Shown: positions 11,459 to 27,667 of the stretch, piece after piece | Position numbering within the stretch: the stretch's first letter is position 1 | Layout of the letters: each line of letters starts with the position of its first letter | DNA from: Candidatus Bathyarchaeota archaeon | Lineage (GTDB): Archaea > Thermoproteota > Bathyarchaeia > Bathyarchaeales > DTEX01 | Assembly (NCBI GenBank): GCA_963714275.1 | Contig: CAVQNT010000010.1 | Location: 1 to 57,391 of the forward strand | Length of the DNA stretch: 57,391 bases | Reading direction: 5' to 3' | Position numbers and translations under genes: made by a program | Notes under the pieces: model-generated | What the model saw: only the letters and a program-made list of their open reading frames with translations | Told to the model about the DNA's origin: nothing | Database searches by the model: none

Positions 11459-12667
11459 TTACTCGCCGACATCAGCAACCACGGATATCTTAGCCGCCTG
11501 AATCCCTGCAAATTCGATGAGCTCTTCATTAGTCACATAAACGCCTTGTTTTATTGCTTCAAAACGATACGTTCCACAAATCATGACCACCAGATTGTGT
11601 TCCCTGAAAACAACAAAGGATCCACTTGCAAGACCGGTCCAATCGTCCCAACCACTCCATGACAGGTCGCGTCTTTCAAATTGGTCAACGAGGAACCCCG
11701 AATCCCCTATTTCCTGCATTGTGACTCTACAGTGTCCATATTTTTCCGTTAGCAGCATACCTTCCATCCTACTTTCAAGGTACTGAGCCGCAACCTCATC
11801 ATTCACAAACTGGATGATCTCAATTGTGATATCCTTAGCAAAGCCGTTATCTGGTTTAGTGAAGGATCTACTGCTCATGCCAAACCCTTCAATCGTTGTT
11901 TCGTTAAGCCTCCCCTCCCCAGCAACAACCCAACCTTCCGGCAAATCCTCTGAGCCTATTATCACGAGCCTTGGATGAATCGATATTGGATAAGGAACTG
12001 CAGGAGGAGGACCAACAGTAAAGTTCACAATGGTCTCAGATGAGTCAACAAGTCCACTAAGCAATTCTTTCACACTAGCTTTTAGCGTGTAGATTCCAGG
12101 AACCCAGTCATAGGATACAAGTATGCAATATCCTCTGTATGAAAAAACGCTTGAAACATTAGTTGAACTACTTAATCCCTCTACACCACTAAAACCCCGT
12201 AAATCACTTGTATTAGCCACTAAAATTCCCTGAGAATCATACAGTGCTAAAGACATTTTAAAATAGGCAAACAAAACTTCATCATAAAATACATACTCAC
12301 TATCTTTTTCGCCTAGATTGCTTGATTCCCAGATTCCAGCGCCCTGCGGGGTTGAATAGAAATAAGTATAATTTAGCATGATTCCCATAATGTCTCCTTG
12401 CCTGAATTCTTCCTGTGGGATGGTGCTGATTGGAAATTGGGTTGGAAATTGTTGGGTAATATCAAATTTTATTGTACCCAACGACGTTATCTTTAAAGAC
12501 TCTACAGGAAATAGTGACCTGGCAGTAGCTTCCGGATTTAACTCTATAACCACAGGTGTGTGTGGAAAAATCCGTTGATTTGTTTCAGCAGCAGCTAATC
12601 CTAAGACTGCTGACCCAATAACTAACATCATGGTCATAACAATAACTTTACGATTCATGTCCTTCAC
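11459..12667 (-). CDS. Hypothetical secreted protein
   Basis: 402-aa ORF with signal peptide. Confidence 0.75.
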   Translation of the reverse strand: MKDMNRKVIVMTMMLVIGSAVLGLAAAETNQRIFPHTPVVIELNPEATARSLFPVESLKITSLGTIKFDITQQFPTQFPISTIPQEEFRQGDIMGIMLNYTYFYSTPQGAGIWESSNLGEKDSEYVFYDEVLFAYFKMSLALYDSQGILVANTSDLRGFSGVEGLSSSTNVSSVFSYRGYCILVSYDWVPGIYTLKASVKELLSGLVDSSETIVNFTVGPPPAVPYPISIHPRLVIIGSEDLPEGWVVAGEGRLNETTIEGFGMSSRSFTKPDNGFAKDITIEIIQFVNDEVAAQYLESRMEGMLLTEKYGHCRVTMQEIGDSGFLVDQFERRDLSWSGWDDWTGLASGSFVVFREHNLVVMICGTYRFEAIKQGVYVTNEELIEFAGIQAAKISVVADVGE

Positions 12668-12762
12668 AAGTCCAAGCTTTGATGAAACAGTATAAACAAT
12701 TTAGGTGAAAAATCGACCCTTCTCGTTTCATTTTTTGAAAACAAGACTTATTATTATTACAA

Positions 12763-12800
12763 CCCCCTCTCTCCCCTTGTTTGCACGGATTCTTTAAAAG
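12763..12800 (+). promoter_or_regulatory. C-rich/CACGGA-N4-TTAA promoter-like box, copy 2
   Basis: ccccctctctccccttgtttgCACGGAttctTTAAAAG upstream of 12843. Confidence 0.6.
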
Positions 12801-12842
12801 GGTTTTGAGTCAGCTCTAATGCCCCTATAGGGTGGTTGTGTT

Positions 12843-13163
12843 TTGGGTAAGACTGTTCCTTCCTTTCGTATGAAGCTTGAAAGCGAGATTGCTAAATGGA
12901 AAGAATTCATGAAGGCTCTTCCAGGCAACTCAGACAAAGAAGCTTTTGAAGAGTTAATGAATTATTGTCGCAGTTACGCGTCAGCTGCGGGAGCTGCTGT
13001 AAGGCCGATCGTGTCAGATGCTATGTTCATGTCCATTCTTCTAGCTCAAGAAAAAGAACTGAGAGAGATCATGGCTTTACTTGAAAAACTTAACAACGAG
13101 AAGGAGAAGCAGCAGGATGAAAATTCACAGCTGGGTCTCAAGAAAGAAGTACCTGCACAATAA
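12843..13163 (+). CDS. Small helical protein of the family encoded next to archaeal PolB2 (arCOG07300-like)
   Basis: MGKTVPSFR...W..F.KAL...DKEAFEELM...A.G....P.....MSILL..EK pattern; family recalled from memory. Confidence 0.75.
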   Translation: MGKTVPSFRMKLESEIAKWKEFMKALPGNSDKEAFEELMNYCRSYASAAGAAVRPIVSDAMFMSILLAQEKELREIMALLEKLNNEKEKQQDENSQLGLKKEVPAQ

Positions 13164-13365
13164 GGCCGCATACGAATATGAAAGGTTCTGCGTACCTGTA
13201 CCTAAACGGTTACAAAGCATCGTGAAACCCTTCGCCAACAGAGAAGTCAATATCAAAATAGAACCACACAAAGACGGCTTCACAATGCAAGTCCACCTTT
13301 CCTCCCGCCCCAAAACTTCTAAAGACAAGAAAAATAGCGAAGAAAAGCCTTCACGAACCCCGTAA
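13117..13365 (+). CDS. Small basic protein, possibly AbrB/SpoVT-like (paralog of 17947..18159)
   Basis: YEYERFCVPVPKRLQSIVKPF vs YQYEQIVMPIPRKFHDLVKPY; ATG at 13117. Confidence 0.65.
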   Translation: MKIHSWVSRKKYLHNKAAYEYERFCVPVPKRLQSIVKPFANREVNIKIEPHKDGFTMQVHLSSRPKTSKDKKNSEEKPSRTP

Positions 13366-13569
13366 AAACGTTTATGCGCACCGAAAAACACCCCGTCAAA
13401 ATCCCCACTTCTATACATACCTAAGCCATGAATTTAACAGGAAAATGTACATCAATCCTAAATACGGTTCCCAACTGCGATTTTGCTATAGGCATTTCTG
13501 TACACAGAAACGTTTTCGCCTATAGAACTCCTTGTTGCATAAAAATGTGTAAAAAGCTGAAAAACCCCA
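13358..13569. promoter_or_regulatory. Conserved intergenic control region, module A
   Basis: ccccgtaaaaacgttt (16 nt) and tgtgtaaaaagctgaaaaacccca (24 nt) are identical in module B; inverted aaaacgttt...gaaa / tttctgtacacagaaacgtttt pair. Confidence 0.7.
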
Positions 13570-13638
13570 AGCCCAAAAATTCGTCATTCATGCAGCCTTG
13601 ATGGCTAAAGCTTGTCTGTTTAAGGGCTTGTTAAGGAC

Positions 13639-14025
13639 ATGACAAGAAATGGGAAACCAGGACTTTCGGTCTTTAAGGGTAGAGAAGCAAGACTGAACAG
13701 AATGATCCTTCTCTTTCTTTGCAAAGAATGTTGTTTGAACATTTGGCAAGTCTATAAGAGAGTAAGAGAAACCCGAGGTTTTCGGCATCTAAGATACCAT
13801 GTTATTAATAGACGCATAAGAGACTTGGAACAAGAAGGATTCATCGAAGTAACGACTGTAAGAGAGATGCCTCAAGGACAAAAAGTGAAATTCTTCCAGC
13901 CTACCACAAAAACCTACCTCGCCTTCCTCCTAGATATCATTAATTTTGACCAACTCATACAGTCAGCAAACAACACAGACATCATCACATTACTAGCAGC
14001 CTTATCAGCCGCAACTATGACTTAG
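13639..14025 (+). CDS. Winged-helix DNA-binding protein (paralog of 18432..18809)
   Basis: LSVFKGREARLN...YHVINRRIRDLEQEGFIE. Confidence 0.8.
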   Translation: MTRNGKPGLSVFKGREARLNRMILLFLCKECCLNIWQVYKRVRETRGFRHLRYHVINRRIRDLEQEGFIEVTTVREMPQGQKVKFFQPTTKTYLAFLLDIINFDQLIQSANNTDIITLLAALSAATMT

Positions 14026-14104
14026 AATCCTTATTTTCTTAAGAAGGACATCTTCCATAACTTCTAATTACTCCTATACTCATAGAATTATTGTGGGGAT
14101 ATTG

Positions 14105-14251
14105 ATGGGCGATAGATCCCAATGGAGCGAGTTGATCGAGGCATCAGAGGAACTGCTCAATGCATACGCTCAATTGAGGGCAAAAGCAGCCAATGTATCT
14201 GATGCAAGAGAGTCAAGCATGGAAACCGAAAATAGCCGACTTCTTAACTAG
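14105..14251 (+). CDS. Possible small helical protein (48 aa)
   Basis: MGDRSQWSELIEASEELLNAYAQLRAKAANV..., gggga upstream. Confidence 0.3.
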   Translation: MGDRSQWSELIEASEELLNAYAQLRAKAANVSDARESSMETENSRLLN

Positions 14252-14275
14252 CCTTTTTCATGTCTTAATACTTAG

Positions 14276-14599
14276 CTATTTTCGCTCTAGCTTGAAGATC
14301 ACTGGTCTTAATCCGTCTGGGCAACACGCTACTGCAACTCCAGTTTCATCAAAATACTCAGGATACCAGGGATTGCCACCAAACCTGAGCGTCATAATTA
14401 TCGCGAACATTGCCTCCCAAGCCCAGGTGCAAAACTCGTTTGGCCTACAACAGTATTCATCAACCTGGAATACCTGTCCTTCTTTGAAGACGGGACATGG
14501 ACCACTATACTTTGCCTTGATTGGAGGATCTTTGAATACTTCTTTGGTGTCAAAACGCTTGAGCACTGTAATCTCTAAGTAACTTTCCTTCCTCTTCAA
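14276..14599 (-). CDS. TIGR04076-family protein
   Basis: GPCPVFKEGQVF...FCTWAW...CCPDGLRPVIFKLER. Confidence 0.85.
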   Translation of the reverse strand: MKRKESYLEITVLKRFDTKEVFKDPPIKAKYSGPCPVFKEGQVFQVDEYCCRPNEFCTWAWEAMFAIIMTLRFGGNPWYPEYFDETGVAVACCPDGLRPVIFKLERK

Positions 14600-14658
14600 A
14601 TAAACGCCTCACACATTGTCTAGCCCGCGCACTTTTATGGCTTATGGAAGGACCTTCG

Positions 14659-14700
14659 TTTGGGTTTGGTGTTAAATTTTAATCCAAACCCAAACCCAAA
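14659..14700. repeat. Inverted repeat tttgggtttgg-N14-ccaaacccaaa containing a recurrent motif
   Basis: Perfect 11-bp arms; right half recurs at 16274 and 18805. Confidence 0.7.
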
Positions 14701-14881
14701 CAGGCTATCTAACAGAGCCTAATAGCATAGCTAGTAGAGGGTGTAGGGGGTACACCTACACCTAGACCTACACCTACAAACAAAACAAATAAAAAAAACA
14801 CACACAAAAACACACAAAAACAAAAACTTTATACGAACAGAAAAAGAGGGGAAGCTGAAATCAGAATACGATTTGTGGTGG

Positions 14882-15292
14882 TTATTTTTCCTTCTTCGGC
14901 GTGGGTATTTCTTTAAGACCGAGTTGCCGCATCAAGTCCAAAGCACTATATTCACCATGGTCTTCCACGATCTTGCCACCAGCAAAGCGGTCGATGAAGA
15001 TCAACGAAATCGTCACCTTCTTATTGGTAGGAGGGATGCCCATAAATTCACCTTTGTGTGTGCCAGTCCACGTCGTGCGCGCTGCTACCTTGTCTCCTTC
15101 GGCGACCATGTCATCAATGGTTACATGCATGTCGGGAAACGCGTCGTACATCTCGCTCTCCATTTGTTTGAAGTCCTTGAGGTCGCCGCGCATATCGATC
15201 GATCGATCGATTGCTGCCATGGCGGCTGCCTTCCCCTTGTTAAACTCCTCAAGGAAACGATGCACAAGCTCCTTATTTTCTTTTGCTGACAT
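14882..15292 (-). CDS. SnoaL-like ester/polyketide cyclase (internally deleted paralog of 16552..16990)
   Basis: AFPDMHVTIDDMVAEGDKVAARTTWTGTHKGEFMGIPPTNK. Confidence 0.85.
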   Translation of the reverse strand: MSAKENKELVHRFLEEFNKGKAAAMAAIDRSIDMRGDLKDFKQMESEMYDAFPDMHVTIDDMVAEGDKVAARTTWTGTHKGEFMGIPPTNKKVTISLIFIDRFAGGKIVEDHGEYSALDLMRQLGLKEIPTPKKEK

Positions 15293-15391
15293 GACAAATC
15301 ACCCGCTAAGAATAAGTGAGTGCGCGTGAATATTTAAGCTTAAATAATTCATTGAGCAGAAGAAAAAAAGAAAAGAAATTCTCGATAGAAG

Positions 15392-15686
15392 TTAGAAATC
15401 AAAATTAGGCGTTCTGGGAATCCATGTTTCTCTTTCGCTACGTAAATACTTAGCAAATAATAATGCTTCTTCGTTAATTAGGGGTTCAAGGGTTTGTCTT
15501 TGACCGTGTTTTATTCTGGGGACATCAACCTTAGACTCGAAATAGCTGTTAAGCTTCCTCATCAAATCTGATGTTTTAGGATCGTTCAAGTATTCACGTT
15601 TAGCCATCTTGCTTCTGGAAAGTCTTTCAGTCTTAACTGTGAAGTCTTTAACCCTGAGACCTTGACAATATTGGATTAAAAAATCA
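15392..15686 (-). pseudogene. cas1: 3' remnant of a stand-alone Cas1-like gene
   Basis: DFLIQYCQ...KDFTVKTE...REYLND...PRIKHGQRQTLEPLINEEALLFAKYLR...WIPR resembles, from memory, the C-terminus of Bathyarchaeia solo Cas1; truncated at the 126-bp repeat. Confidence 0.6.
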
Positions 15687-15812
15687 GAATTACTGACGAC
15701 ATAAAAAAACATATATCACTTAATCCGCATATCTTTGTTGTTCGGGGAGCCCAACCTGTCTAAATATTTCCCTTCTCATCTCCCCGGGCAGCTTGGGCTT
15801 CCCGGGCAACTT
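15687..15812 (+). repeat. 126-bp dispersed repeat, copy 2
   Basis: Near-identical to 4042..4167. Confidence 0.95.
15737..15810 (+). ncRNA. Putative 74-nt hairpin small RNA, copy 2
   Basis: Stem identical to copy 1, loop variant, same promoter, T-rich tail. Confidence 0.65.
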
Positions 15813-15952
15813 CTTTTCATCATTCATCCTGCTTTAGATATCTGAAGCCTAAAATTTTTAATAGCTCGCCAGCCATGGGACAAAAAATGTTGCCTCTTTT
15901 TTGTGCGCAATTCTAAGATAAACCTTTAAACGAGGAGAACAACTGTAAATTT

Positions 15953-16198
15953 GTGGGAGTTGATTCTGTGCCTGTCGCTTTTGTCCTTATAAACACAGAG
16001 ATTGACGCTATGGAAAAAGTCTTGAAAGCCTTAGAGAACGTCGAAAACGTAAAAGAAGCTTATAGCACATTTGGAGTATACGACGTAATTGTTAAGGTTG
16101 AAGCACCGTCTATGGACAAGATCAAAGATTTAGTAACTTACCGAATAAGAAGGCTGGATGGCGTTAGATCAAGCTTAACGATGATAGTTATTGAGTAA
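15953..16198 (+). CDS. Stand-alone Lrp/AsnC ligand-binding domain protein
   Basis: AFVLINTE...FGVYDVIVKVEA...IRRLDGVRSSLTMIV. Confidence 0.9.
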   Translation: MGVDSVPVAFVLINTEIDAMEKVLKALENVENVKEAYSTFGVYDVIVKVEAPSMDKIKDLVTYRIRRLDGVRSSLTMIVIE

Positions 16199-16280
16199 AT
16201 AAAAATAGAATTCCAAAAGGCACTAGCTGGCTAGCGGTATTTTTCTAGCTCAGCTAGAAACATGGTAAAACTATAAAATT

Positions 16281-16520
16281 TTAATCCCAAACCCCAAATA
16301 GAGATAGAGAAAATTGACCAGTTAATTTATTTACATTTCTTTGTATAAGCTCAATATAGCCGCATTTCTTACAATAAAGCGGAATAATTTTATCGCCATA
16401 CCAGTCACCTTTCTTTGAGAAAAGGACTTCCCAAAAATGTGCATGGGTAGCAATCAAACTCCTGCCTTTTTCCATTTCTCCATTACATTTGGGGCATTTC
16501 TTGACTTCGTTTTCACTCAT
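16281..16520 (-). CDS. Small Zn-ribbon protein
   Basis: MSENEVKKCPKCNGEMEKG...YCKKCGYIEL; start reassigned to ATG 16520. Confidence 0.75.
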   Translation of the reverse strand: MSENEVKKCPKCNGEMEKGRSLIATHAHFWEVLFSKKGDWYGDKIIPLYCKKCGYIELIQRNVNKLTGQFSLSLFGVWD

Positions 16521-16551
16521 GGTTACTCCCGCTAAAATAGTATCAGTAAGG

Positions 16552-16990
16552 TTATGTTTCCTTTCCCTGCGTGGGTATAAGGCCGAGTTGTTGCATAAAG
16601 CCATAGGTATCATACCTAACCCATTCCTCCACAAACTTGCCATCAGCAATGCGGTCAATGATGATCTGCGATATCGTTACTTTCTTATTGGTAGAACCGG
16701 TATCACCCATTTTTCCACTATAGGTGCCAGTCATTGTTAAGCGAACTGCCACCTTATCCTCTTCAACAATCATATCATCAATAGTGGAATGAGCGTCTGG
16801 AATCTCGTTGAATGATTCGTCATTAGCTTGCTTGAAGTCCTTAAGACCACGTATATCCTTGCTGTGCGGGCAATGTAACACGATGTTGGTGTCATATAAC
16901 TCGTCTATTACGGTCATGGCAGCCGTCTTTCCTTTATTGGTCTCCTCAATTAGACGACGCACAAGCGCCTTAATTTCTTTCACAGACAAA
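16552..16990 (-). CDS. SnoaL-like ester/polyketide cyclase
   Basis: IPDAHSTIDDMIVEEDKVAVRLTMTGT...GKFVEEW; start approximate. Confidence 0.85.
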
Positions 16991-17063
16991 CCAAACCACC
17001 CGCTAATCGCCAATATAATTTTTATTCTAAAATTAAAAATAAGCCTTATTAAGCTATAAGATT

Positions 17064-17098
17064 CCCCTCTCCCTCTGTCTTCACAGACCTCTTAAATA
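17064..17098 (+). promoter_or_regulatory. C-rich/CACAGA-N4-TTAA promoter-like box, copy 3
   Basis: cccctctccctctgtcttCACAGAcctcTTAAATA upstream of the RadA-like gene. Confidence 0.6.
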
Positions 17099-17153
17099 CG
17101 TTTTTGCCGAGTTAGGTGCACGCTGGATTTCGCAATTCCTAGAGGAAGATGCT

Positions 17154-17906
17154 ATGTTGAAGCTCATCATGCCATTCACGGGCGTTCATCAAACAGCCGT
17201 CCACGGCGCGGAGTCCTTAACCTTCGGCGTCGAAATCATAGACAAGCTTTTCGGAGAGCTGAAAATGGGAGAACTCGTCGTCCTTCACGGTTCGCAAGTG
17301 TGCCACTTTCTTTCGGAACTGCTGTGTATCCGAAGCCAGCTTCCCACGGCTGAAGGGGGATTAAACTCGTCTGCTGTCTTCATCGACGGCAGCAACCGCT
17401 TCGATTTGTACCTGATCTCAGAAAACGCGCGTCTGCTTGGACTGGATCCTGAGGAAACCTTGAAAAACATCTGGGTATCCAGAGCGTTCACGAGTTACCA
17501 GCTCACCGCCCTAATCACTGAGAAGTTATCCGAACTTCTCAACCGGTTAAACTCGAGACTCGTCGTGATCTCGGACATCGCCACCCTGTACTGCGACTCA
17601 GACATCGAGCTGTTTGAAGCGAAGAGAACGTTTAACCGCGTCGTCCGTTTCCTCTGGAACCTCGTAAGAGAAAAAAACCTGCTTTTGGTGGTAACCTCTT
17701 TCTCCTCCAAAAACAGGCGAAAACGGCTACTTGAACAGTACCTTTTCGGACGATCCGACGTCTCAGCCAGGCTTGAGGAAGGAAACCCGCACGTAAAATT
17801 AACATTAGAGAAACATCCGTCTAAACCCGCAGTTTCAGTTGACCTGTTTTTTAACAAACCGAGGAACCAGTTTCTGCTGGAAGAGTTCATGGATGTTAAA
17901 GAATGA
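17154..17906 (+). CDS. Inactivated RadA/RecA-fold protein (PolB2-operon type)
   Basis: QLPTAEGGLNSSAVFIDGSNRFD, NIWVSRAFTSYQL, LVVISD; Walker A degenerate (HGSQVCHF). Confidence 0.85.
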   Translation: MLKLIMPFTGVHQTAVHGAESLTFGVEIIDKLFGELKMGELVVLHGSQVCHFLSELLCIRSQLPTAEGGLNSSAVFIDGSNRFDLYLISENARLLGLDPEETLKNIWVSRAFTSYQLTALITEKLSELLNRLNSRLVVISDIATLYCDSDIELFEAKRTFNRVVRFLWNLVREKNLLLVVTSFSSKNRRKRLLEQYLFGRSDVSARLEEGNPHVKLTLEKHPSKPAVSVDLFFNKPRNQFLLEEFMDVKE

Positions 17907-17946
17907 ATGTTACCGATTCTTTAAAATGAGGTAAGGAGGAAAGTGT

Positions 17947-18159
17947 TTGAGGCTTCGCCGCTGCGTTTTGAAGCAGCACTACCATAAGAAAGGTTCTTAC
18001 CAGTATGAACAGATCGTTATGCCTATTCCTAGAAAGTTTCATGATCTCGTGAAGCCTTATCTTAACAAGGACTTTGAGGTGTCTGTCCAAGTTCCCCCGC
18101 CCCCACATGAAGGATTAATGATAATTTTAAAGCCTAAGAAGAGTTCCAAACCCCCGTAA
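17947..18159 (+). CDS. Small basic protein, possibly AbrB/SpoVT-like (paralog of 13117..13365)
   Basis: YQYEQIVMPIPRKFHDLVKPYLNKDFEV; ggagga SD upstream. Confidence 0.7.
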   Translation: MRLRRCVLKQHYHKKGSYQYEQIVMPIPRKFHDLVKPYLNKDFEVSVQVPPPPHEGLMIILKPKKSSKPP

Positions 18160-18393
18160 AAACGTTTCTATATATAGAAAAATGCCCTTCTAAAACCAGA
18201 AAAAACCATGCCTTGCAATCCTGAAAATCAACAGTTTAAACATAAAAATGATTAATCTCCTTATATTGCTGGAATTTTCTACATGTAGAAAAAGTTTGCC
18301 TTATAGTATTTTTCTATGTATAGAAACGAATTCACCGCAGTCTTGCACGAAAATTATGATACATAAATCTGTGTAAAAAGCTGAAAAACCCCA
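18152..18393. promoter_or_regulatory. Conserved intergenic control region, module B, with three TTTCT-N6-AGAAA palindromes
   Basis: tttctatatatagaaa 18165, ttttctacatgtagaaaa 18275, tttctatgtatagaaa 18311. Confidence 0.75.
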
Positions 18394-18431
18394 CTCGTCA
18401 ACCTCACGGATAAAGAGCGTGGGAGGGAATA

Positions 18432-18809
18432 GTGAAACCAAGGCTCTCCGTCTTCACAGGACGAGAGGCAAAGCTAAACAAAGCTATCTTTCAAGTACTT
18501 GCCACAGAGGGCGCACTGACAATTTACGAGATCAGCAAGAAAGTAAGAACCCACAGATCATTAAGGTACAATAAATATTCAGTGATAAACCGCCGAGTCA
18601 GAAGCCTAACCGACAAGGGATATATCGAGACAATTAGCGCCAAAAGAACACAAACTGGCTTTCAAGCGCAACTCTACCAACTAACACTAAGAGCCTATCT
18701 TGCCATCACATTAAGCAAGATCGACTTAGACAGGTTCATTGAAGAAGCCAGTGAAAAGAACATCATAAATGCCTTAACTTCTATAACACCTCTCCTAGAT
18801 GAAGGTTAA
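18432..18809 (+). CDS. Winged-helix DNA-binding protein (paralog of 13639..14025)
   Basis: LSVFTGREAKLN...YSVINRRVRSLTDKGYIE...LYQLTLRAYLA. Confidence 0.8.
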   Translation: MKPRLSVFTGREAKLNKAIFQVLATEGALTIYEISKKVRTHRSLRYNKYSVINRRVRSLTDKGYIETISAKRTQTGFQAQLYQLTLRAYLAITLSKIDLDRFIEEASEKNIINALTSITPLLDEG

Positions 18810-18922
18810 ATTTTAACCCCCAAACCCAAAAAATATTGGCACAATAGCAAGCTAGCTAGATATCACACAAAACGATATTAAGAAACAATACAAAATTGAA
18901 GAAAAATGTTACTACTAGGGTG

Positions 18923-19443
18923 ATGGATCTTAACGGAAATCAAGATTCGCAGAGCAGAACTGTTAGACTTGAATAAGATCATCAGAGCTACAGTTAGACC
19001 TACAGAGCCACCTTGAAAAATCTAGCTCCCGCATATGGAGATACACCGACGAAAGAAAAGGAAACTTAAGACAACAATTTAAGAATGACATCCAGAATGA
19101 AAATGTTCTACTTTTAGTAGCTGAAGCTAAAAAAAAGACTGTCGGATTCGCGCAAGGAATTATAATGCACAGAACGGATTATTTGCCTAACATTATTGGA
19201 ATGCTGTCCACAATATATGTAGACCAAAAGTTCAGAAGGCAAGGTATTGGAAGAAAACTGGTCTATGAAATCTGTAAATTTTTTAAAGCCAATAAAGTTG
19301 AAAAGATCTATCTAAGATATGTTTTAGGAAACATTGAAGGCGAGAAATTCTGGAAAGACCTAGGATTCAAAAAGATTCTAGTGACCGCTGGAACTGACAT
19401 CAACAAAGTGGAGAAAAACTTGCAGAGAAAAGTAAAAATTTAA
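18923..19443 (+). CDS. GNAT acetyltransferase (frameshifted 5' part)
   Basis: IYVDQKFRRQGIGRKL, NIEGEKFWKDLGF; upstream frames give EIKIRRAELLDL and LLVAEAKKKTVGF. Confidence 0.8.
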
Positions 19444-19474
19444 TTCCTTCCTTCCCAAACCTAAACATATTGAA

Positions 19475-19873
19475 TTAAGACTTTTCATTACCAATCACTT
19501 TTCCCTCTGAATCCGTTAATAGAACACCTTTACTGAGATCAAGAAGGACAAGACGATTACCCCAAGGATCTTCCACAATTGCACACTTACCCACATCGAT
19601 GTCAAATGGCTGTACGATCACTCTAGAACCCGCATCCACAAGATACTTGACACTTAATACAACCGATTCAACGAGAAGATCGGTCTCCTGCCCCTTTCGA
19701 GAAGTTTGAATGACTATTTCGGTGTCAGATTCTGGCATCTGAAAACCAGCCGAATCGTCTTTTCTCCACTTGAGTTTATGTCCCAAAGTATTTTGATAGA
19801 ATTTTATACCTGATTCGAGGTCTGAAACATGAAACAGTACACAGTCAACTTTCCTTATTAATGGAAAATTCAT
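19475..19873 (-). CDS. VOC/glyoxalase family protein
   Basis: VSDLESGIKFYQNTLG...EDPWGNRLVL. Confidence 0.9.
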   Translation of the reverse strand: MNFPLIRKVDCVLFHVSDLESGIKFYQNTLGHKLKWRKDDSAGFQMPESDTEIVIQTSRKGQETDLLVESVVLSVKYLVDAGSRVIVQPFDIDVGKCAIVEDPWGNRLVLLDLSKGVLLTDSEGKVIGNEKS

Positions 19874-19939
19874 CGTTCAATCACCCAGTCTACCTACTAT
19901 AATTGCACACGCATTTGAAATTTAAAAAAGCTAGCCAAA

Positions 19940-19974
19940 CCCCCCTGCCCCTACTCTCACAGATTGCTTATATT
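19940..19974 (+). promoter_or_regulatory. C-rich/CACAGA-N4-TTAT promoter-like box, copy 4
   Basis: cccccctgcccctactctCACAGAttgcTTATATT; followed by ggagg and only a short or degraded ORF. Confidence 0.55.
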
Positions 19975-20245
19975 CAATTTTTGTAAAGGTTTTTGCGGAG
20001 GTTGCTAAGGTTGGTGGACAGACTAATAGAAAACCATATTTCCCCCACAAATTGCCCGACTGCTTCCATTTTATGGATACCGTTGCAACCTCCAATTAGG
20101 CAAAGACCACCATAACCTGCATATGTGATCTTAAACAGTTAGCAAGCGGATGGCTTGAGAAGACGATAATAAACGCTGTTGTGAACCGTATGGAAAAAGG
20201 TTTAGCTGTCTCCTAAGTGCGCGCGTTAATATACCCAATCCAAAA

Positions 20246-20827
20246 TTATAGATTTTTTTCCATGAACATGCAGTATGGTCGAAGCCATTCTGGGGTTTCA
20301 CCACCAGTGTATTCAGCGATTTCCTTGAATCCTGCGGATCGGTAAACATGATGAGCTGTGGTTGAAAAGTCTGCAGTTTCAAGTCGAAGTGTAGAGTATC
20401 CAAGTTCCCTAGCTTTCCCTATCAACCTGTTGAGCATCTCTTTTCCATAACCTTTCCCCTGATGCTCTGGACGAATGTACATACGCTTGATTTCTCCAAC
20501 TCCTTCCTCCAGCTTTATTAATGCTCCCATCCCTTCCACTTTGCCATCGATTTCGAGCAAATACGTTATTCCCTCGGACGACCGAATGTTCGTAAAGTTG
20601 CCAATGACAGTCCTAACGTATTCTTGGACCGACTTGCCCAAGATCGATACAATATCAATGTTGTGTCGCGCAAAATATTTCTCAGCAAACCAGGAAGCAT
20701 ACTCCACATTCAACTCGAAAAACTGTGCTTGATGAACAGAGTCATCATAAGGAACAAAGTTTGCCACCAACCTCTTAGACCTCCTATAAAAACAATAAAG
20801 GTGAAGAACATAATAAAAATTCAACAA
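20246..20827 (-). CDS. GNAT acetyltransferase
   Basis: EIKRMYIRPEHQGKGYG, YRSAGF; true start probably ~20770. Confidence 0.9.
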   Translation of the reverse strand: MLNFYYVLHLYCFYRRSKRLVANFVPYDDSVHQAQFFELNVEYASWFAEKYFARHNIDIVSILGKSVQEYVRTVIGNFTNIRSSEGITYLLEIDGKVEGMGALIKLEEGVGEIKRMYIRPEHQGKGYGKEMLNRLIGKARELGYSTLRLETADFSTTAHHVYRSAGFKEIAEYTGGETPEWLRPYCMFMEKNL

Positions 20828-20882
20828 TAATTAAGCCGTAACTTAACCGTGCACTTCGGTAAGGACCAGCAGTGTATATCCG

Positions 20883-21083
20883 CTAAGTAAAATCCTTGCC
20901 AAACTTGGACATCGACGAAAGACCTTGTTTATTGACTCTTATTACATTGTAGTTCCTATCGAAATAAACTTTAATGACTTCACATTTTGAATTCGGACAC
21001 ATAAAACCCCGTTTCTGTTTAACCAGTTTTGAACCGCAAACCGGGCATTTTGGCTCAGCCTTCTTCAATTGACGAACCCCCAT
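20883..21083 (-). CDS. Small Zn-ribbon protein
   Basis: CPVCGSKL...FMCPNSKC; start reassigned to ATG 21083. Confidence 0.65.
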   Translation of the reverse strand: MGVRQLKKAEPKCPVCGSKLVKQKRGFMCPNSKCEVIKVYFDRNYNVIRVNKQGLSSMSKFGKDFT

Positions 21084-21176
21084 TAAGGAACAGAAACAAA
21101 AGATATTAGAGTTTCGAACATTTACCATGCTAGTTTCTAAATCATCAATAACTAGTAAAGTTATAACTTGATTATG

Positions 21177-21241
21177 TACTTTGAAGGGGTCTCCAAAGTA
21201 TAGTATACTTTGAAGAGGCTCCCAAAGTATAGTATACTTTG
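21177..21241. repeat. 29-bp tandem repeat forming two perfect 19-bp palindromes (caaagtata-g-tatactttg)
   Basis: Palindromes at 21194-21212 and 21223-21241 in the divergent intergenic region upstream of the integrase operon. Confidence 0.9.
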
Positions 21242-21296
21242 CGGGCGCCAGAAATGTCTTATAGTTTTGTTTCAACAAATGTTCAAGGTGACATAA

Positions 21297-21557
21297 TTGG
21301 TTAGTTTAGTGGAGTCTTGGGAAGACCTAGAAGAGTACGCACAGTGGTGCAGAACCGGAGCCTACCAGATGCGGGAAACGGTTGAAGGCATCGAACTTCG
21401 GGTCTTCACAGGCAGGTATGGCTTTGTAAAATGCTTTGGGAACACGCAGGATCCCCTGTTTAGCCACATCTTAGACTTCTGCAAGACTGAAGGCTTCATA
21501 AAAGTCCTGGGCAACGTGCCAGACGACCTCTTCTTTTCATTGCACAGAGAAGCCTAA
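21297..21557 (+). CDS. Hypothetical protein upstream of integrase
   Basis: 86-aa ORF with aggtga SD. Confidence 0.7.
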   Translation: MVSLVESWEDLEEYAQWCRTGAYQMRETVEGIELRVFTGRYGFVKCFGNTQDPLFSHILDFCKTEGFIKVLGNVPDDLFFSLHREA

Positions 21558-21570
21558 TCTTTAGGCAATA

Positions 21571-22831
21571 ATGGGCAGGGGAGTGGCTGGCTTCCACGAT
21601 GCTTCGTTCAGAAACGCGTATTTCACCAACAAGCGGGTTAACCAAGAAGGGAAGTACGGCGAGTATGGCGTCGTCCTACACCAGCCCCCCACATGCCCAG
21701 AATGTGGTCAACAAAAGTTTGGAAAGACGGATTCCGAAGTGACAGTCTTATTCCTATTCAGAGGCGGCTTTGCCGTGACTGCGGCTACCGGTTTTCTGAC
21801 CATGTTCAAACTAATAAAAAGGAGAACCAGCATAGTAGTGAGTGCCTAGTACGCGTTTCGGACAACGAGATGATAAACTTGGCCACAGTGGAACCCCGAA
21901 TTCAAGAAAAGGCTGCGGGAGCCACAGTCAATGATGCAAAAAGTCTAATCTTTGAGTATGCGTGGATGCTTAAGAAACAAGGCTATCGAGAAGGAACAAT
22001 CAGGGAATACGCGAATCAAATAGCGCTCTTAAAAAAATATGGCGCTGACATATTCAACCCAGAATCAGTAAAATCTGTTCTAGCACAAGCAAGCTGGAAA
22101 GAATCAACCAAGGCTGTAATTACAAAAATCTATTCCAATTTTCTTTCATTCCACAACTTGACTTGGCATGAACCAACATATAAACAAAGAAAAACGCTTA
22201 AATTCATACCGACAGAAAAGGAAATCAACGATCTAATTAGCTGTTGCGGAAAAATCACAAGCTTAGCCTTAAGAATAGCGAAAGAAACTGGAGCTCGAAT
22301 CGGTGAAATAGCAAAGTTAAGATGGATCGATATAGACCGAGAAAAAAGAATCCTGAGAATCAGCGAAGCTGAGAAAGGCAGCAATCCAAGAATATTGAGC
22401 ATATCTAACGACCTTATAGCACTCTCGACCACATGCAAAAGAAAGGCGAATACGTCTTCATGACAAATGGCAAACCTATGGTCGCAACACACTTGAGCGG
22501 ACTTCTTCTAAACGGCAGAAAAACAGCAGCCAGAAAACTCATAAATCCAAGACTACTAGAAATCTCGTTTCACACTATGAGGCATTGGAAAGCCACAATG
22601 GAATACCACAAAACCAGAGACATACTGCACGTGAAAGAAGTGCTGGGACATAAATGCATTGAAAACACCATGATTTACATTGACATGGAGAAAGCGTTAT
22701 TCCGTGAAGGAAACGAAGACTTCATAGTTAAAGCCGCTGCAAATTTGGATGAAGCATGCAAACTCCTTGAGGTGGGATTTGAATATGTCTGTGAAATGGA
22801 CGGAAAGAAGCTGTTTAGAAAGAGAAACTAA
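21571..22831 (+). CDS. Tyrosine recombinase/integrase with N-terminal Zn ribbon (frameshifts ~21708 and ~22430)
   Basis: TGARIGE, EKG, HTMRH, LGH, TMIY catalytic set; N-terminal CPECG..KVWKDG...QRRLCRDCGYRF. Confidence 0.9.
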
Positions 22832-22944
22832 AAACAACAAACATAAGCTGAAAATAACTAAAATAAGACTTATATGCTTCTTTTCCATTAAAGGCATAAA
22901 CAAACTATGTGCAGTAAATATCCATTTATGAAGAGGGGTTAAAA

Positions 22945-23223
22945 ATGGTTAGCAAAAAGAAACAGCAAGAATACGACGAAAGAATCAAACAAGCCGTGTT
23001 CATTCTGGGTCAGGTTTCTGAAGACAACACGACCCCTCGAAACATCAGAAGAGCAGCAAAGAACTCGTTGGACACGCTGCAGTCACTGGGAAATACGGTC
23101 GGCATCAGAACATCCAACGCTATCTCAATCCTCGACGAGATTCTTCAAGACCCCAACATGCCACCTTACACGCGCGTGAAACTCTGGAACGTCATGAGCC
23201 TTCTTGAAGCAATAAAGGACTAA
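22945..23223 (+). CDS. UPF0147 family protein
   Basis: DNTTPRNIRRAA...DPNMPPYTR. Confidence 0.9.
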   Translation: MVSKKKQQEYDERIKQAVFILGQVSEDNTTPRNIRRAAKNSLDTLQSLGNTVGIRTSNAISILDEILQDPNMPPYTRVKLWNVMSLLEAIKD

Positions 23224-23322
23224 CCTCCAATTTCATTTATCATGCAAGTCTATGGGAATACTTTATATCATCGACAGAAAATAATGTAGCACCTCAAAAC
23301 CGTATTTACAGACTCACAAAAA

Positions 23323-24381
23323 ATGGTGTCTGACATGCCCAAAGAACTGATTGCTACCGCACCAGAGCATCTAGCCTTCAGGGAATACCAAGATCCGCCT
23401 TTGAAACCAAACCAGATACGCATAAAAAGCCAACTTTCTGCCGAAAAACACGGGACAATGCTGCCCATATTCTTGGGAGTGTCTTCATTCACAAATAAAA
23501 GATACGACGCTGAATCAGGCTTGTTTCTTCCAGAAAGTACAGGAAAAGGCTGGACACCCACGTTCCCGATGACTCTGGGAAACATGACCGTTGGCACAGT
23601 CACAGAAATCGGAGCCAAAGCTAAAAACGTAAAGGTCGGAGACAGAGTCTACGGTTACCTTCCAATAAGGGAAACTCACACAGTCGGCGAGGAAGCCGTG
23701 AATGTGGCGCCAATGGAACTGGGCGACAAAGACATAGTATGTATGGACCCCTCAGTAGTCGCATTCATGGCTGTCCGCGAAGGCCGCGTCAGAATCGGAG
23801 ACACGGTGGCAGTCTTCGGTCTCGGAGCAATAGGGCTCATGGCGGTTCAGCTAGCCGAGCTCTCTGGCGTCTTAACAGTTATCGGCGTTGAACCTATTCA
23901 GAAACGGAGGAACCTTGCTGAAACATATGGTGCTGATGTAACGTTGAATCCGCTTGAATGTGACATCGGATTGGCAGTTAAAAAAATGACTGGCAGTAAA
24001 GGCGTGGACATCTCTTTAGAGACAAGCGGATCATACAAGGCTCTACACGAAGCCATAAGAACCACAAGGTTTGGTGGTTCAGTCGTACCCGTTTCGTGGT
24101 ATCATGGCGAAACGAAGGGTCTGAATCTCGGTGAAGAATGGCACTTCAACCGTCAGGTTTTGGTTTCAGGTGCAAGGGTGGAAAGCGAACCATACAGAGA
24201 CTATCCATTGTGGGACAGGAAACGTCTTTACGACACGGTTCTTGAGCTGTTCCGGAAGAAGCGTTTAACGAGCCAAGGTATGCTTACCCCAACAGTGCGG
24301 TTTGAAGATGTTGTTGAAGCTTATCGGATGCTTATTGAAAAGCCTGAAGAAACAATTAAATTGGGCGTAGTTTACAGTTAA
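23323..24381 (+). CDS. MDR-superfamily (Zn-type alcohol) dehydrogenase
   Basis: GLGAIG Rossmann motif, GroES-like N-terminal domain. Confidence 0.85.
   Translation: MVSDMPKELIATAPEHLAFREYQDPPLKPNQIRIKSQLSAEKHGTMLPIFLGVSSFTNKRYDAESGLFLPESTGKGWTPTFPMTLGNMTVGTVTEIGAKAKNVKVGDRVYGYLPIRETHTVGEEAVNVAPMELGDKDIVCMDPSVVAFMAVREGRVRIGDTVAVFGLGAIGLMAVQLAELSGVLTVIGVEPIQKRRNLAETYGADVTLNPLECDIGLAVKKMTGSKGVDISLETSGSYKALHEAIRTTRFGGSVVPVSWYHGETKGLNLGEEWHFNRQVLVSGARVESEPYRDYPLWDRKRLYDTVLELFRKKRLTSQGMLTPTVRFEDVVEAYRMLIEKPEETIKLGVVYS

Positions 24382-26703: not shown

Positions 26704-27667
<964 letters not shown>

Follow-up and report, generated by a model that had tools for sequence, protein, structure and literature searches.

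Contig CAVQNT010000010.1 of a Candidatus Bathyarchaeota archaeon (GenBank assembly GCA_963714275.1) carries two similar gene modules that share identical blocks of non-coding DNA, and the locus raises the question of what kind of genetic system such modules belong to. Bathyarchaeia are abundant and almost entirely uncultivated, and to our knowledge nothing is known about the control of their mobile elements. The window analyzed here is this whole contig (C10; 57,391 bp) of a 2.64-Mb genome assembled in 10 contigs (C1-C10); below, this genome is G000, related genomes are G001 and so on, and extracted loci carry numbers beginning with L. Module A (12763-14025) and module B (17064-18809) have the same gene order and strand, namely a promoter box (at 12763 and 17064, respectively), a gene in slot 1 for a protein of 106 amino acids (aa) in A and 250 aa in B, a gene for a small protein, a spacer, and a gene for a winged helix-turn-helix (wHTH) protein. 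We consider it likely that A and B represent two sub-types of one regulatory head, that of a family of Bathyarchaeia integrative elements with a tyrosine integrase, and that this head has the anatomy and mechanism proposed below; that the cassette belongs to integrative elements at all can be held with considerably greater confidence.

Two modules and their copies within the genome

An earlier note on this DNA had reported the common order and strand of A and B, their homologous small and wHTH proteins, and the positions of the shared blocks, all of which were confirmed. The small proteins are encoded at 13117-13365 (A, 82 aa) and 17947-18159 (B, 70 aa), and the wHTH proteins at 13639-14025 (A, 128 aa) and 18432-18809 (B, 125 aa), all on the + strand. 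An exact 16-nt block, CCCCGTAAAAACGTTT, occurs at 13358-13373 in A and 18152-18167 in B, and an exact 24-nt block, TGTGTAAAAAGCTGAAAAACCCCA, at 13546-13569 and 18370-18393 (+). The coding DNA beside these blocks is strongly diverged, as the note had stated: identity over aligned columns is 59% in the small gene, 55% in the spacer, and 52% in the wHTH gene, with longest exact runs of 8, 24, and 7 nt, respectively. Among 1000 shuffled versions of one spacer, the longest word in common was at most 14 nt, against the 24 nt actually present. At the protein level, 20 of 66 aligned residues are identical between the small proteins, which both hit one family profile, and 47 of 124 between the wHTH proteins.

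The genome holds six full copies of the small and wHTH gene pair, plus remnants; the wHTH protein has eight matches, six of them full length, and the small protein nine. The 24-mer, with up to three mismatches allowed, occurs six times genome-wide and only at these six copies. The nearest relative of A lies at C2:301553-302500 (90%), and those of B on C4, C6, and C5 (84-86%). Therefore, A and B are two sub-types rather than duplicates of each other. The C6 copy is a mosaic, B-like (58-97%) to the left of A-coordinate 13551 and A-like (78-93%) to the right, so that the crossover falls on the 24-nt block. This recombinant combines a B-type small protein and B-type sites with an A-type wHTH protein.

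The note had also suggested a non-autonomous mobile unit, in which case the ~1.3-1.9 kb module itself would be a mobile or cassette-like unit moved in trans. Its homology boundaries at the run of C residues in the promoter box (C-run) are sharp, segments are reshuffled among contigs, and box B is closely preceded by an att-like AAAATAAGCCTTAT. Moreover, a unit made of a gene for a 107-aa cysteine-rich protein and a repeat (14240-14683; 95% identical at C2:300661-301102 and C6:364814-365255) follows the wHTH gene in C10 and precedes the promoter box in C2 and C6, and is therefore permuted with respect to the module. However, neither terminal repeats, inverted or direct, nor target duplications were found around a module, and the mosaicism is explained by homologous recombination at the conserved blocks. 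We thus regard independent movement of the module as most improbable and keep to modules that are heads of larger elements and are reshuffled by recombination at the conserved block.

Integrase, island ends and distribution

An integrase nearby, a point raised in the note, was found. The gene for a protein named p86 and a tyrosine integrase gene lie downstream on the same strand in five of the six copies, those on C10 (21297-22831), C2 (C2a and C2b), C4, and C6, and the integrase gene of the C4 copy abuts tRNA-Pro. The p86 gene of the window (21297-21557, +; ~85-86 aa) occupies the position between wHTH gene and integrase that it has in related elements; p86 matches no PHROGs family, and to call it an excision helper would be a guess. 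The integrase gene (21571-22831, +) consists of three open reading frames (ORFs; 21571-21849, 21693-22463, and 22433-22831), with PF00589 (Phage_integrase) on 21693-22460 and 22433-22828 and a tblastn match to an intact 406-aa copy on C6; intact copies of 405-406 aa are found on C6 and C2. The three-ORF form is due either to decay of the gene or to assembly frameshifts. A phosphofructokinase gene of the window (26707-27667, -) is likewise divided into three consecutive ORFs, and a P-type ATPase gene on C2 (L038:5922-8690) is split as well; taken with the integrase, these genes reflect either many pseudogenes or indel errors of the assembly.

The extent of the integrated DNA emerged from an empty site. 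In the congeners G002 and G001, DNA matching the window from 22847-22861 rightwards abuts DNA matching C6:14382-14466 onward, and G004 has 1.9 kb of other DNA between the same flanks. A 26-nt imperfect direct repeat, AATAACTAAAATAAG(A)CT(T)ATATGCT, is present at both island ends, C10:22853-22878 and C6:14404 (-); the copy in the window, with the core AATAACTAAAATAAGACTTATATGCT (22853-22878), is the predicted attR at the right end and has its partner at C6:14404 (-). From the empty site and the terminal repeats taken together, positions 1-22852 are read as the integrase-proximal (right) part of an att-flanked island, inside which both modules lie. The other part, C6:1-14378, carries mostly metabolic cargo, and the island would measure at least 37 kb if the ends of C10 and C6 join, a join that is not in the assembly. 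The island also contains a fragment of a PPB2 gene, a neighbour of the PolB2 polymerase gene discussed below, at 10-171, and an HTH_45 gene at 2567-2920 with a box-like CACAGACTGCTTAAG core at its end and 17 tblastn matches across the genome. Both are probably remnants of further element heads, several of which would therefore have gathered in this island. Thus the "undescribed two-regulator switch" of the note stands as to the two regulators but not as a chromosomal switch of its own, the modules being placed as heads of integrase-bearing elements in an att-flanked island. The cryptic integrated elements of Thaumarchaeota, as far as they are presented in the part of PMC6563490 available to us, are similar in that att sites flank an island whose one end carries a tyrosine integrase gene and whose cargo is mostly not of viral or plasmid type, and differ in belonging to another host class.

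A pattern scan of GTDB species genomes yielded 43 loci, 42 with the wHTH gene, and all but one of the scanned loci are labelled Bathyarchaeia or Bathyarchaeota. Among the 42, the small gene is found upstream in 23, and p86, a gene for a ~120-aa protein (p120), and an integrase gene are found downstream in 19, 11, and 18, respectively; these counts are lower bounds because contig ends cut many loci. The most compact arrangement, small-wHTH-p86-p120-integrase, is seen in L046, and L043 has the same with one 72-aa gene between the small and wHTH genes; in such minimal relatives the wHTH gene is the first of a same-strand run of wHTH, p86, p120, and integrase genes. A tailed provirus in L044, with a large terminase (TerL, 6e-36) and a tail protein, has a wHTH-98aa-integrase unit at its end. 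The end of this provirus (L044/L077; CP122380.1, ~646-658 kb, a complete Bathyarchaeia genome) adjoins an 817-aa gene that looks aminoacyl-tRNA synthetase-like by sequence. Beside the wHTH gene, some relatives have an inserted Phd/RelE-like pair or 72-aa Phd-like gene, both labelled by eye (L045:11057-11532; L043:9699-9998 region). Counted by genome, the wHTH protein occurs in 9 of 61 relatives including this one, and the small family in 30 of 301 Bathyarchaeia genomes and 13 of 107 genera, with eight matches here and one to three per genome elsewhere. The core of five genes (small protein, wHTH, p86, p120, and integrase) is defined here; it was found neither in the literature searched nor in the available part of the Bathyarchaeia virus paper PMC10848311.

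The spacer and its two regulators

The spacer between the small and wHTH genes is alignable among 17 loci, and eight spacers from four genomes (~290 nt) show 73% mean column identity, compared with 40-66% aa identity of the flanking proteins. That the non-coding blocks are functional sites, as the note had proposed, agrees with their appearance and with their conservation across genera. The spacer contains two candidate operator sites in inverted orientation, site 1 having the form AAAACGTTTC-N8-GAAA and site 2 the inverted form TTTC-N8-GAAACGTTTT. In A, site 1 (13365-13386) consists of the arm AAAACGTTT and a degenerate palindrome, and site 2 (13495-13516) of the palindrome TTTCTGTACACAGAAA and a CGTTTT arm; a TATA-like CCTAAATACGG with a presumed promoter role lies between them (13457-13467, +). 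In B, site 1 (18159-18180) is AAAACG plus TTTCTATATATAGAAA and site 2 (18311-18332) is TTTCTATGTATAGAAA plus CGAATT, with a third palindrome, TTTCTACATGTAGAAA (18276-18291), which is present only in B-type spacers. Module B also has a second TATA-like box, GATTCTTTAAAATG (17915-17928, +), which resembles the TATA element of box A and lies directly upstream of the small gene. The 16-nt block comprises the final codons of the small gene, its stop codon, and AAAACGTTT, the last of these forming the outer arm of site 1. The palindrome TTTCT-N6-AGAAA occurs 25 times in the genome, 15 times inside cassettes. In 12 loci the distance between arm starts is 139-143 nt; the palindrome centers are accordingly ~125 bp apart, near 12 helical turns, and a TATA-like T[TA]AAATA lies ~50 nt before the second arm, forward in 12 loci and reverse in one.

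Which of the two proteins would use these sites was judged from their distribution. A classical scheme would have the wHTH dimer as an autorepressor on the palindromes, leaving the small protein as an anti-repressor, excision helper, or nucleoid-type accessory. Indeed, the wHTH gene is preceded by these 16-bp palindromes, sites of a kind to which PadR/MarR dimers bind, and the recognition helix (R54, R55) and the outer half-sites TTTC/GAAA are both nearly invariant. However, the arm motif is present in 21 of the 23 GTDB loci with the small gene and in only 4 of 18 without it (41 loci in total), two of these four having less than 400 nt of upstream sequence; the remaining 14 of the 18 wHTH loci thus lack both small gene and motif, and seven wHTH loci without the small gene carry GGACA(C/G)TATCC repeats instead. 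Furthermore, the type of site follows the type of small protein and not that of the wHTH protein, TTTCTA..TAGAAA going with B-type and TTTCTG..CAGAAA with A-like small proteins, and the C6 recombinant pairs an A-type wHTH protein with B-type sites. The autorepressor scheme is for these reasons judged unlikely. Since both the type and the presence of the sites track the small gene, the paired sites were assigned to the small protein, which we narrowly favor as the protein that binds them. In L070, L071, L074-L076, L078, and L079, which lack the small gene, two or three copies of AAAGGACA(C/G)TATCC lie ~200 nt upstream of the wHTH gene; they may be the wHTH protein's own operator in that lineage.

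The 24-nt block, on which the mosaic crossover falls, lies beyond site 2 and is the local form of a wider motif, TGTnTAnnAAnGTGAAWAG, that follows site 2 in other lineages. This promoter-proximal or 5′-leader candidate probably serves the wHTH gene as an element of either its core promoter or its leader. A short conserved reading frame across the block was considered and rejected: the ORFs are in different frames in A (13428-13601) and B (18248-18376), the latter with its stop inside the block.

The conservation of the spacer could also be explained if it acted as RNA, either a structured leader or a small RNA, or if the integrase flipped the DNA between the inverted arms. fimS is such an invertible promoter switch. 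The ~290 nt conserved at 73% would suit an RNA, as would a lineage-specific long hairpin around site 2, and the inverted arms flank a segment with a TATA-like box next to a tyrosine recombinase in cis. However, this hairpin is not kept in the other lineage, the covariation term of RNAalifold over eight spacers is -0.87 kcal/mol, and Rfam gave no match at any gathering score in 12000-24000, where one hit (Plastid-psbJ-4, E 0.74) was listed. Inversion is at odds with the colinearity of all aligned spacers and with a TATA-like box that is forward in 12 loci and reverse in one. An RNA or an invertible switch therefore seems very improbable, and we retain the reading of the spacer as a putative protein-binding control region of the element.

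The wHTH protein is predicted to have a PadR/MarR-type winged-helix fold: its model (pLDDT 91) shows a winged helix followed by three C-terminal helices, and Foldseek matched it with probability 1.0 and E ~1e-3 to Rv0880, PadR-DNA, LmrR, and MarR, the fold matches including the PadR-DNA and ST1710-DNA complexes. It constitutes a distinct family marked by the N-terminal signature SVFKGREAxLN and a nearly invariant recognition helix (R54, R55). No Pfam family was above its cut-off, the best being TrmB (19.4 bits vs 25.6), with HTH_24 also below its cut-off, and none of 58 wHTH homologs has a precomputed Pfam domain. A sequence search of solved structures gave no match below E 0.09 for either the wHTH or the small protein.

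The small protein belongs to a hitherto unannotated family, defined here by 213 clusters (50% identity) at E ≤ 0.001 among 1.84 billion representatives, and matches neither a Pfam nor a PHROGs family. Its AF2 (AlphaFold) model, with pLDDT 79, has a strand-strand-helix-strand-strand order (E4-12, E17-25, H30-39, E44-51, E54-61), which is also the order of elements in the AbrB/SpoVT/MazE/VapB swapped-hairpin domain (PF04014), from which it differs in its longer strands and in that none of 80 family members was matched by hmmscan. The closest structural rows were C56 of pSSVi (VIA Z 3.0), VapB (Z 2.6), C68 of pSSVx, and MazE, with Foldseek E values of ~1-3 for C56, C68, and MazE. C68 (PDB 3o27), which we take to be AbrB-like, and C56 (PDB 7xi6) resemble the small protein as small beta-rich proteins of archaeal mobile elements but have no sequence similarity to it, and the scores (Foldseek TM 0.50-0.52, target-normalized; VIA Z 3.0) are in the chance range. 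In hhalign, the family aligned in register with 17 PF04014 domains of this genome (probability 19.9%, P 0.0011), compared with P 0.36 for the wHTH alignment as control, and its xVPVPKRF...G.ELKV was placed on the IPK...GD motif of these domains. From the fold order and this alignment, the small protein is rather likely to be AbrB-like, a label that the earlier note had used and that can be kept as plausible, since the fold order agrees and the sequence and structure scores are weak. A type II toxin-antitoxin pair was rejected, as the partner is a wHTH regulator and the genes of the modules include no toxin family.

The promoter box and the PolB2 accessory genes

The "CACAGA box" of the note exists at the head of both modules and is better given as a C-run (CCCCTCYCCC), CACRGA, and a TATA-like (C/T)TTAAAT. 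Box A (12763-12802, +) has its C-run at 12763-12776, GCACGGATTC at 12783-12792, and a TATA-like TTTAAAA from 12793; box B (17064-17100, +) has its C-run at 17064-17075, the palindrome TCTGTCTTCACAGA at 17074-17087, and the TATA-like CTTAAATACG at 17091-17100. In an alignment of nine upstream regions, the similarity begins at the C-run, with unrelated sequence ahead of it. The pattern of a C-run, 8-24 nt, and (C/T)TTAA(A/G) occurs 16 times in the genome and zero to three times in each of three shuffles. The 16 sites precede an iRadA-PPB2-PolB2 operon on C7, four PPB2-like genes, the iRadA gene of module B, four genes of a MarR-like ~103-aa family, three of a 76-115-aa family, and three others. 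The four MarR-like copies are intact, cut, or frameshifted, and a fifth, upstream of the C4 copy, matches only a looser pattern. The 76-115-aa family (MAVNAFDVLDVLEKSG...) lies behind the same box at C1:84297, C6:438901, and C2:566044. At C2:158662-160031, far from any cassette, a gene for a MarR-like 103-aa homolog, a box (C2:158985), and a RadA-like gene (29% identity to iRadA) occur together.

The slot-1 genes were previously labeled as a PolB2-neighbor protein (A) and an inactive RadA (B), and correctly so, the two being paralogs of PPB2 and iRadA. Judged from their sequences, both are intact orphan paralogs with no polB2 alongside; PolB2 matches along its full length only at C7:153885-156140 and nowhere in the window. 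The slot-1 gene of A (12843-13163, +) encodes a 106-aa protein starting with MGKTVPSFR, which matches phrog_30126 (4e-7) and is 60% identical to PPB2 of the C7 operon; in the PPB2 copies carried by modules, both the MG(K/R)T arm and Arg9 are retained. In section 3.3.1 of PMC11791011, within the part available, the N-terminal MGRT arm and Arg9 of PPB2 are modeled as a contact to PolB2 and iRadA. The slot-1 gene of B (17154-17906, +) encodes a 250-aa protein with a Pfam Rad51 match (2.3e-15) and no GKT P-loop, 85% identical in aa sequence to C7:156382-157125; window 17061-17901 as a whole is 85% identical to C7:157221-156378, which is the chromosomal iRadA gene with its promoter. The order in the C7 operon, DUF72, iRadA, PPB2, and PolB2, agrees with the neighborhood described in PMC11791011, as far as the available text goes. 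In most relatives, slot 1 is filled by a MarR-like protein.

The C-run and CTTAAAT are found upstream of the iRadA operon in 10 of 17 loci, module B being one of them, in 9 genomes of the same taxonomic family; a strict regular expression flagged only 4 of these 10. In G001, G002, G008, and G012 the box precedes the iRadA operon and the wHTH protein has no match, and the box is therefore a host element shared by the cassettes. One could accordingly suppose that the small-wHTH pair serves the host by regulating the PolB2 damage-tolerance operon and only tends to be located in variable regions. Besides the common promoter class, it would fit this proposal that L087 and L104 have a complete iRadA-PPB2-PolB2 operon at a distance of 1-3.5 kb from the cassette, these being the only two among the 42 loci with a full PolB2 beside the wHTH gene. 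However, iRadA is found in 17 of 61 relatives and wHTH in 9 of 61, the four genomes named above have operon and box with no wHTH match, and the pair itself is present in several copies, is linked to an integrase gene in 18 of 42 loci, and belongs to an island that congeners lack. Control of the host operon as the proper role of the pair thus has very little probability, and the link to PolB2 genes is better placed within the integrative-element reading. A PPB2-like gene lies within ~2 kb upstream of the wHTH gene in 7 of the 42 loci, in support of the repair-gene link of the earlier note, as does the promoter class common to the PolB2 operon. Homologous pairs elsewhere that lacked the blocks or any tie to repair or integrase genes would have spoken otherwise, and this was not the outcome, given the integrase link in 18 and the PPB2-like link in 7 of 42 loci and the shared promoter class.

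The proposed mechanism combines these parts. The box-class promoter (C-run, CACRGA, and TTAAAT) would drive a first operon of the slot-1 gene and the small gene and thereby deliver the small protein, which, probably as an AbrB-like dimer or tetramer, would bind the two phased sites around the internal TATA-like box, probably by looping. Its binding would set the transcription of the wHTH, p86, p120, and integrase genes, with the wHTH protein serving as a maintenance regulator of the element. DNA damage might be the input that flips the cassette toward excision, as the first operon uses the promoter type of the PolB2 operon, and PolB2 operons are damage-induced in other archaea according to the available part of PMC11791011; that the box itself is damage-inducible is, by this analogy, possible though doubtful. 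The PPB2 and iRadA paralogs may be cargo able to plug into the host PolB2 complex. It is at present rather unlikely that the elements sense the damage response of the host via the PolB2-operon promoter class and, with their own PPB2 and iRadA, re-equip or re-program its mutasome.

Several observations weigh against parts of this proposal. The integrase gene of the window is split over three ORFs, and the island is possibly immobile for that reason; no convincing att repeats emerged around the C6, C2a, C2b, and C4 copies in a naive search, the att of the window island having been found solely by comparison with the empty site. The association of sites and small gene is confounded by physical linkage, as site 1 overlaps the 3′-end of the small gene and the crossover lies downstream of site 2. 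The scores for an AbrB-like fold are weak (VIA Z 3.0 and 2.6; hhalign probability 20%), and none of 80 members of the small family reaches any Pfam family, PF04014 included, by hmmscan. Finally, the C-run promoter is found only in this taxonomic family (1 of 41 GTDB loci by the strict pattern), and the archaea in which PolB2 operons are known to be damage-induced do not include Bathyarchaeia.

In temperate phages and integrative-conjugative elements, immunity or regulatory regions adjoin the integrase gene, as with lambda CI/Cro, ICEBs1 ImmR, and SXT SetR, and Tum of coliphage 186 is under a LexA promoter. The cassette is similar in having two small regulators with operators between them beside the integration genes of an integrated element, and, like Tum, a regulator of the element may here be under a host damage-type promoter. 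It differs in its unrelated proteins (a Pfam-less family and a PadR/MarR-like wHTH), in its archaeal TATA promoters, and in showing no sign of a cleavable repressor. As to the slot-1 genes, PMC11791011, in the part at hand, covers polB2 neighborhoods only and mentions the plasmid-borne Pol V homologs mucAB/rumAB; the slot-1 copies are likewise on mobile DNA and are paralogs of PPB2 and iRadA (the latter with a degenerate P-loop), but they are orphans without a polymerase gene. This link to PolB2 accessory genes is the least expected feature of the cassette, and orphan PPB2 and iRadA on mobile DNA extend the recently modeled PolB2 mutasome toward horizontal transfer. Besides the five-gene core and the small-protein family, a candidate operator layout of two sites at fixed spacing and a promoter class linking the elements with the PolB2 damage-tolerance operon are defined here. 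If damage sensing and mutasome re-equipping were true, the elements would parallel, in archaea, both SOS-coupled prophage induction and plasmid-borne mucAB/rumAB, and the C-run/CACRGA/TTAAAT box would be the first candidate damage-response promoter element of Bathyarchaeia.

Two further features lie in and around the modules. Genes for SnoaL-like paralogs are located between A and B (14882-15292 and 16552-17013, -) with 69-75% DNA identity, and more are present on C7 and C3. An AT-rich palindrome, TTAAATTTTAA, with CCAAACCC/GGGTTTGG arms occurs at 14658-14701, 16276-16298, and 18804-18830, and its core is found 68 times in the genome, 36 times with arms.

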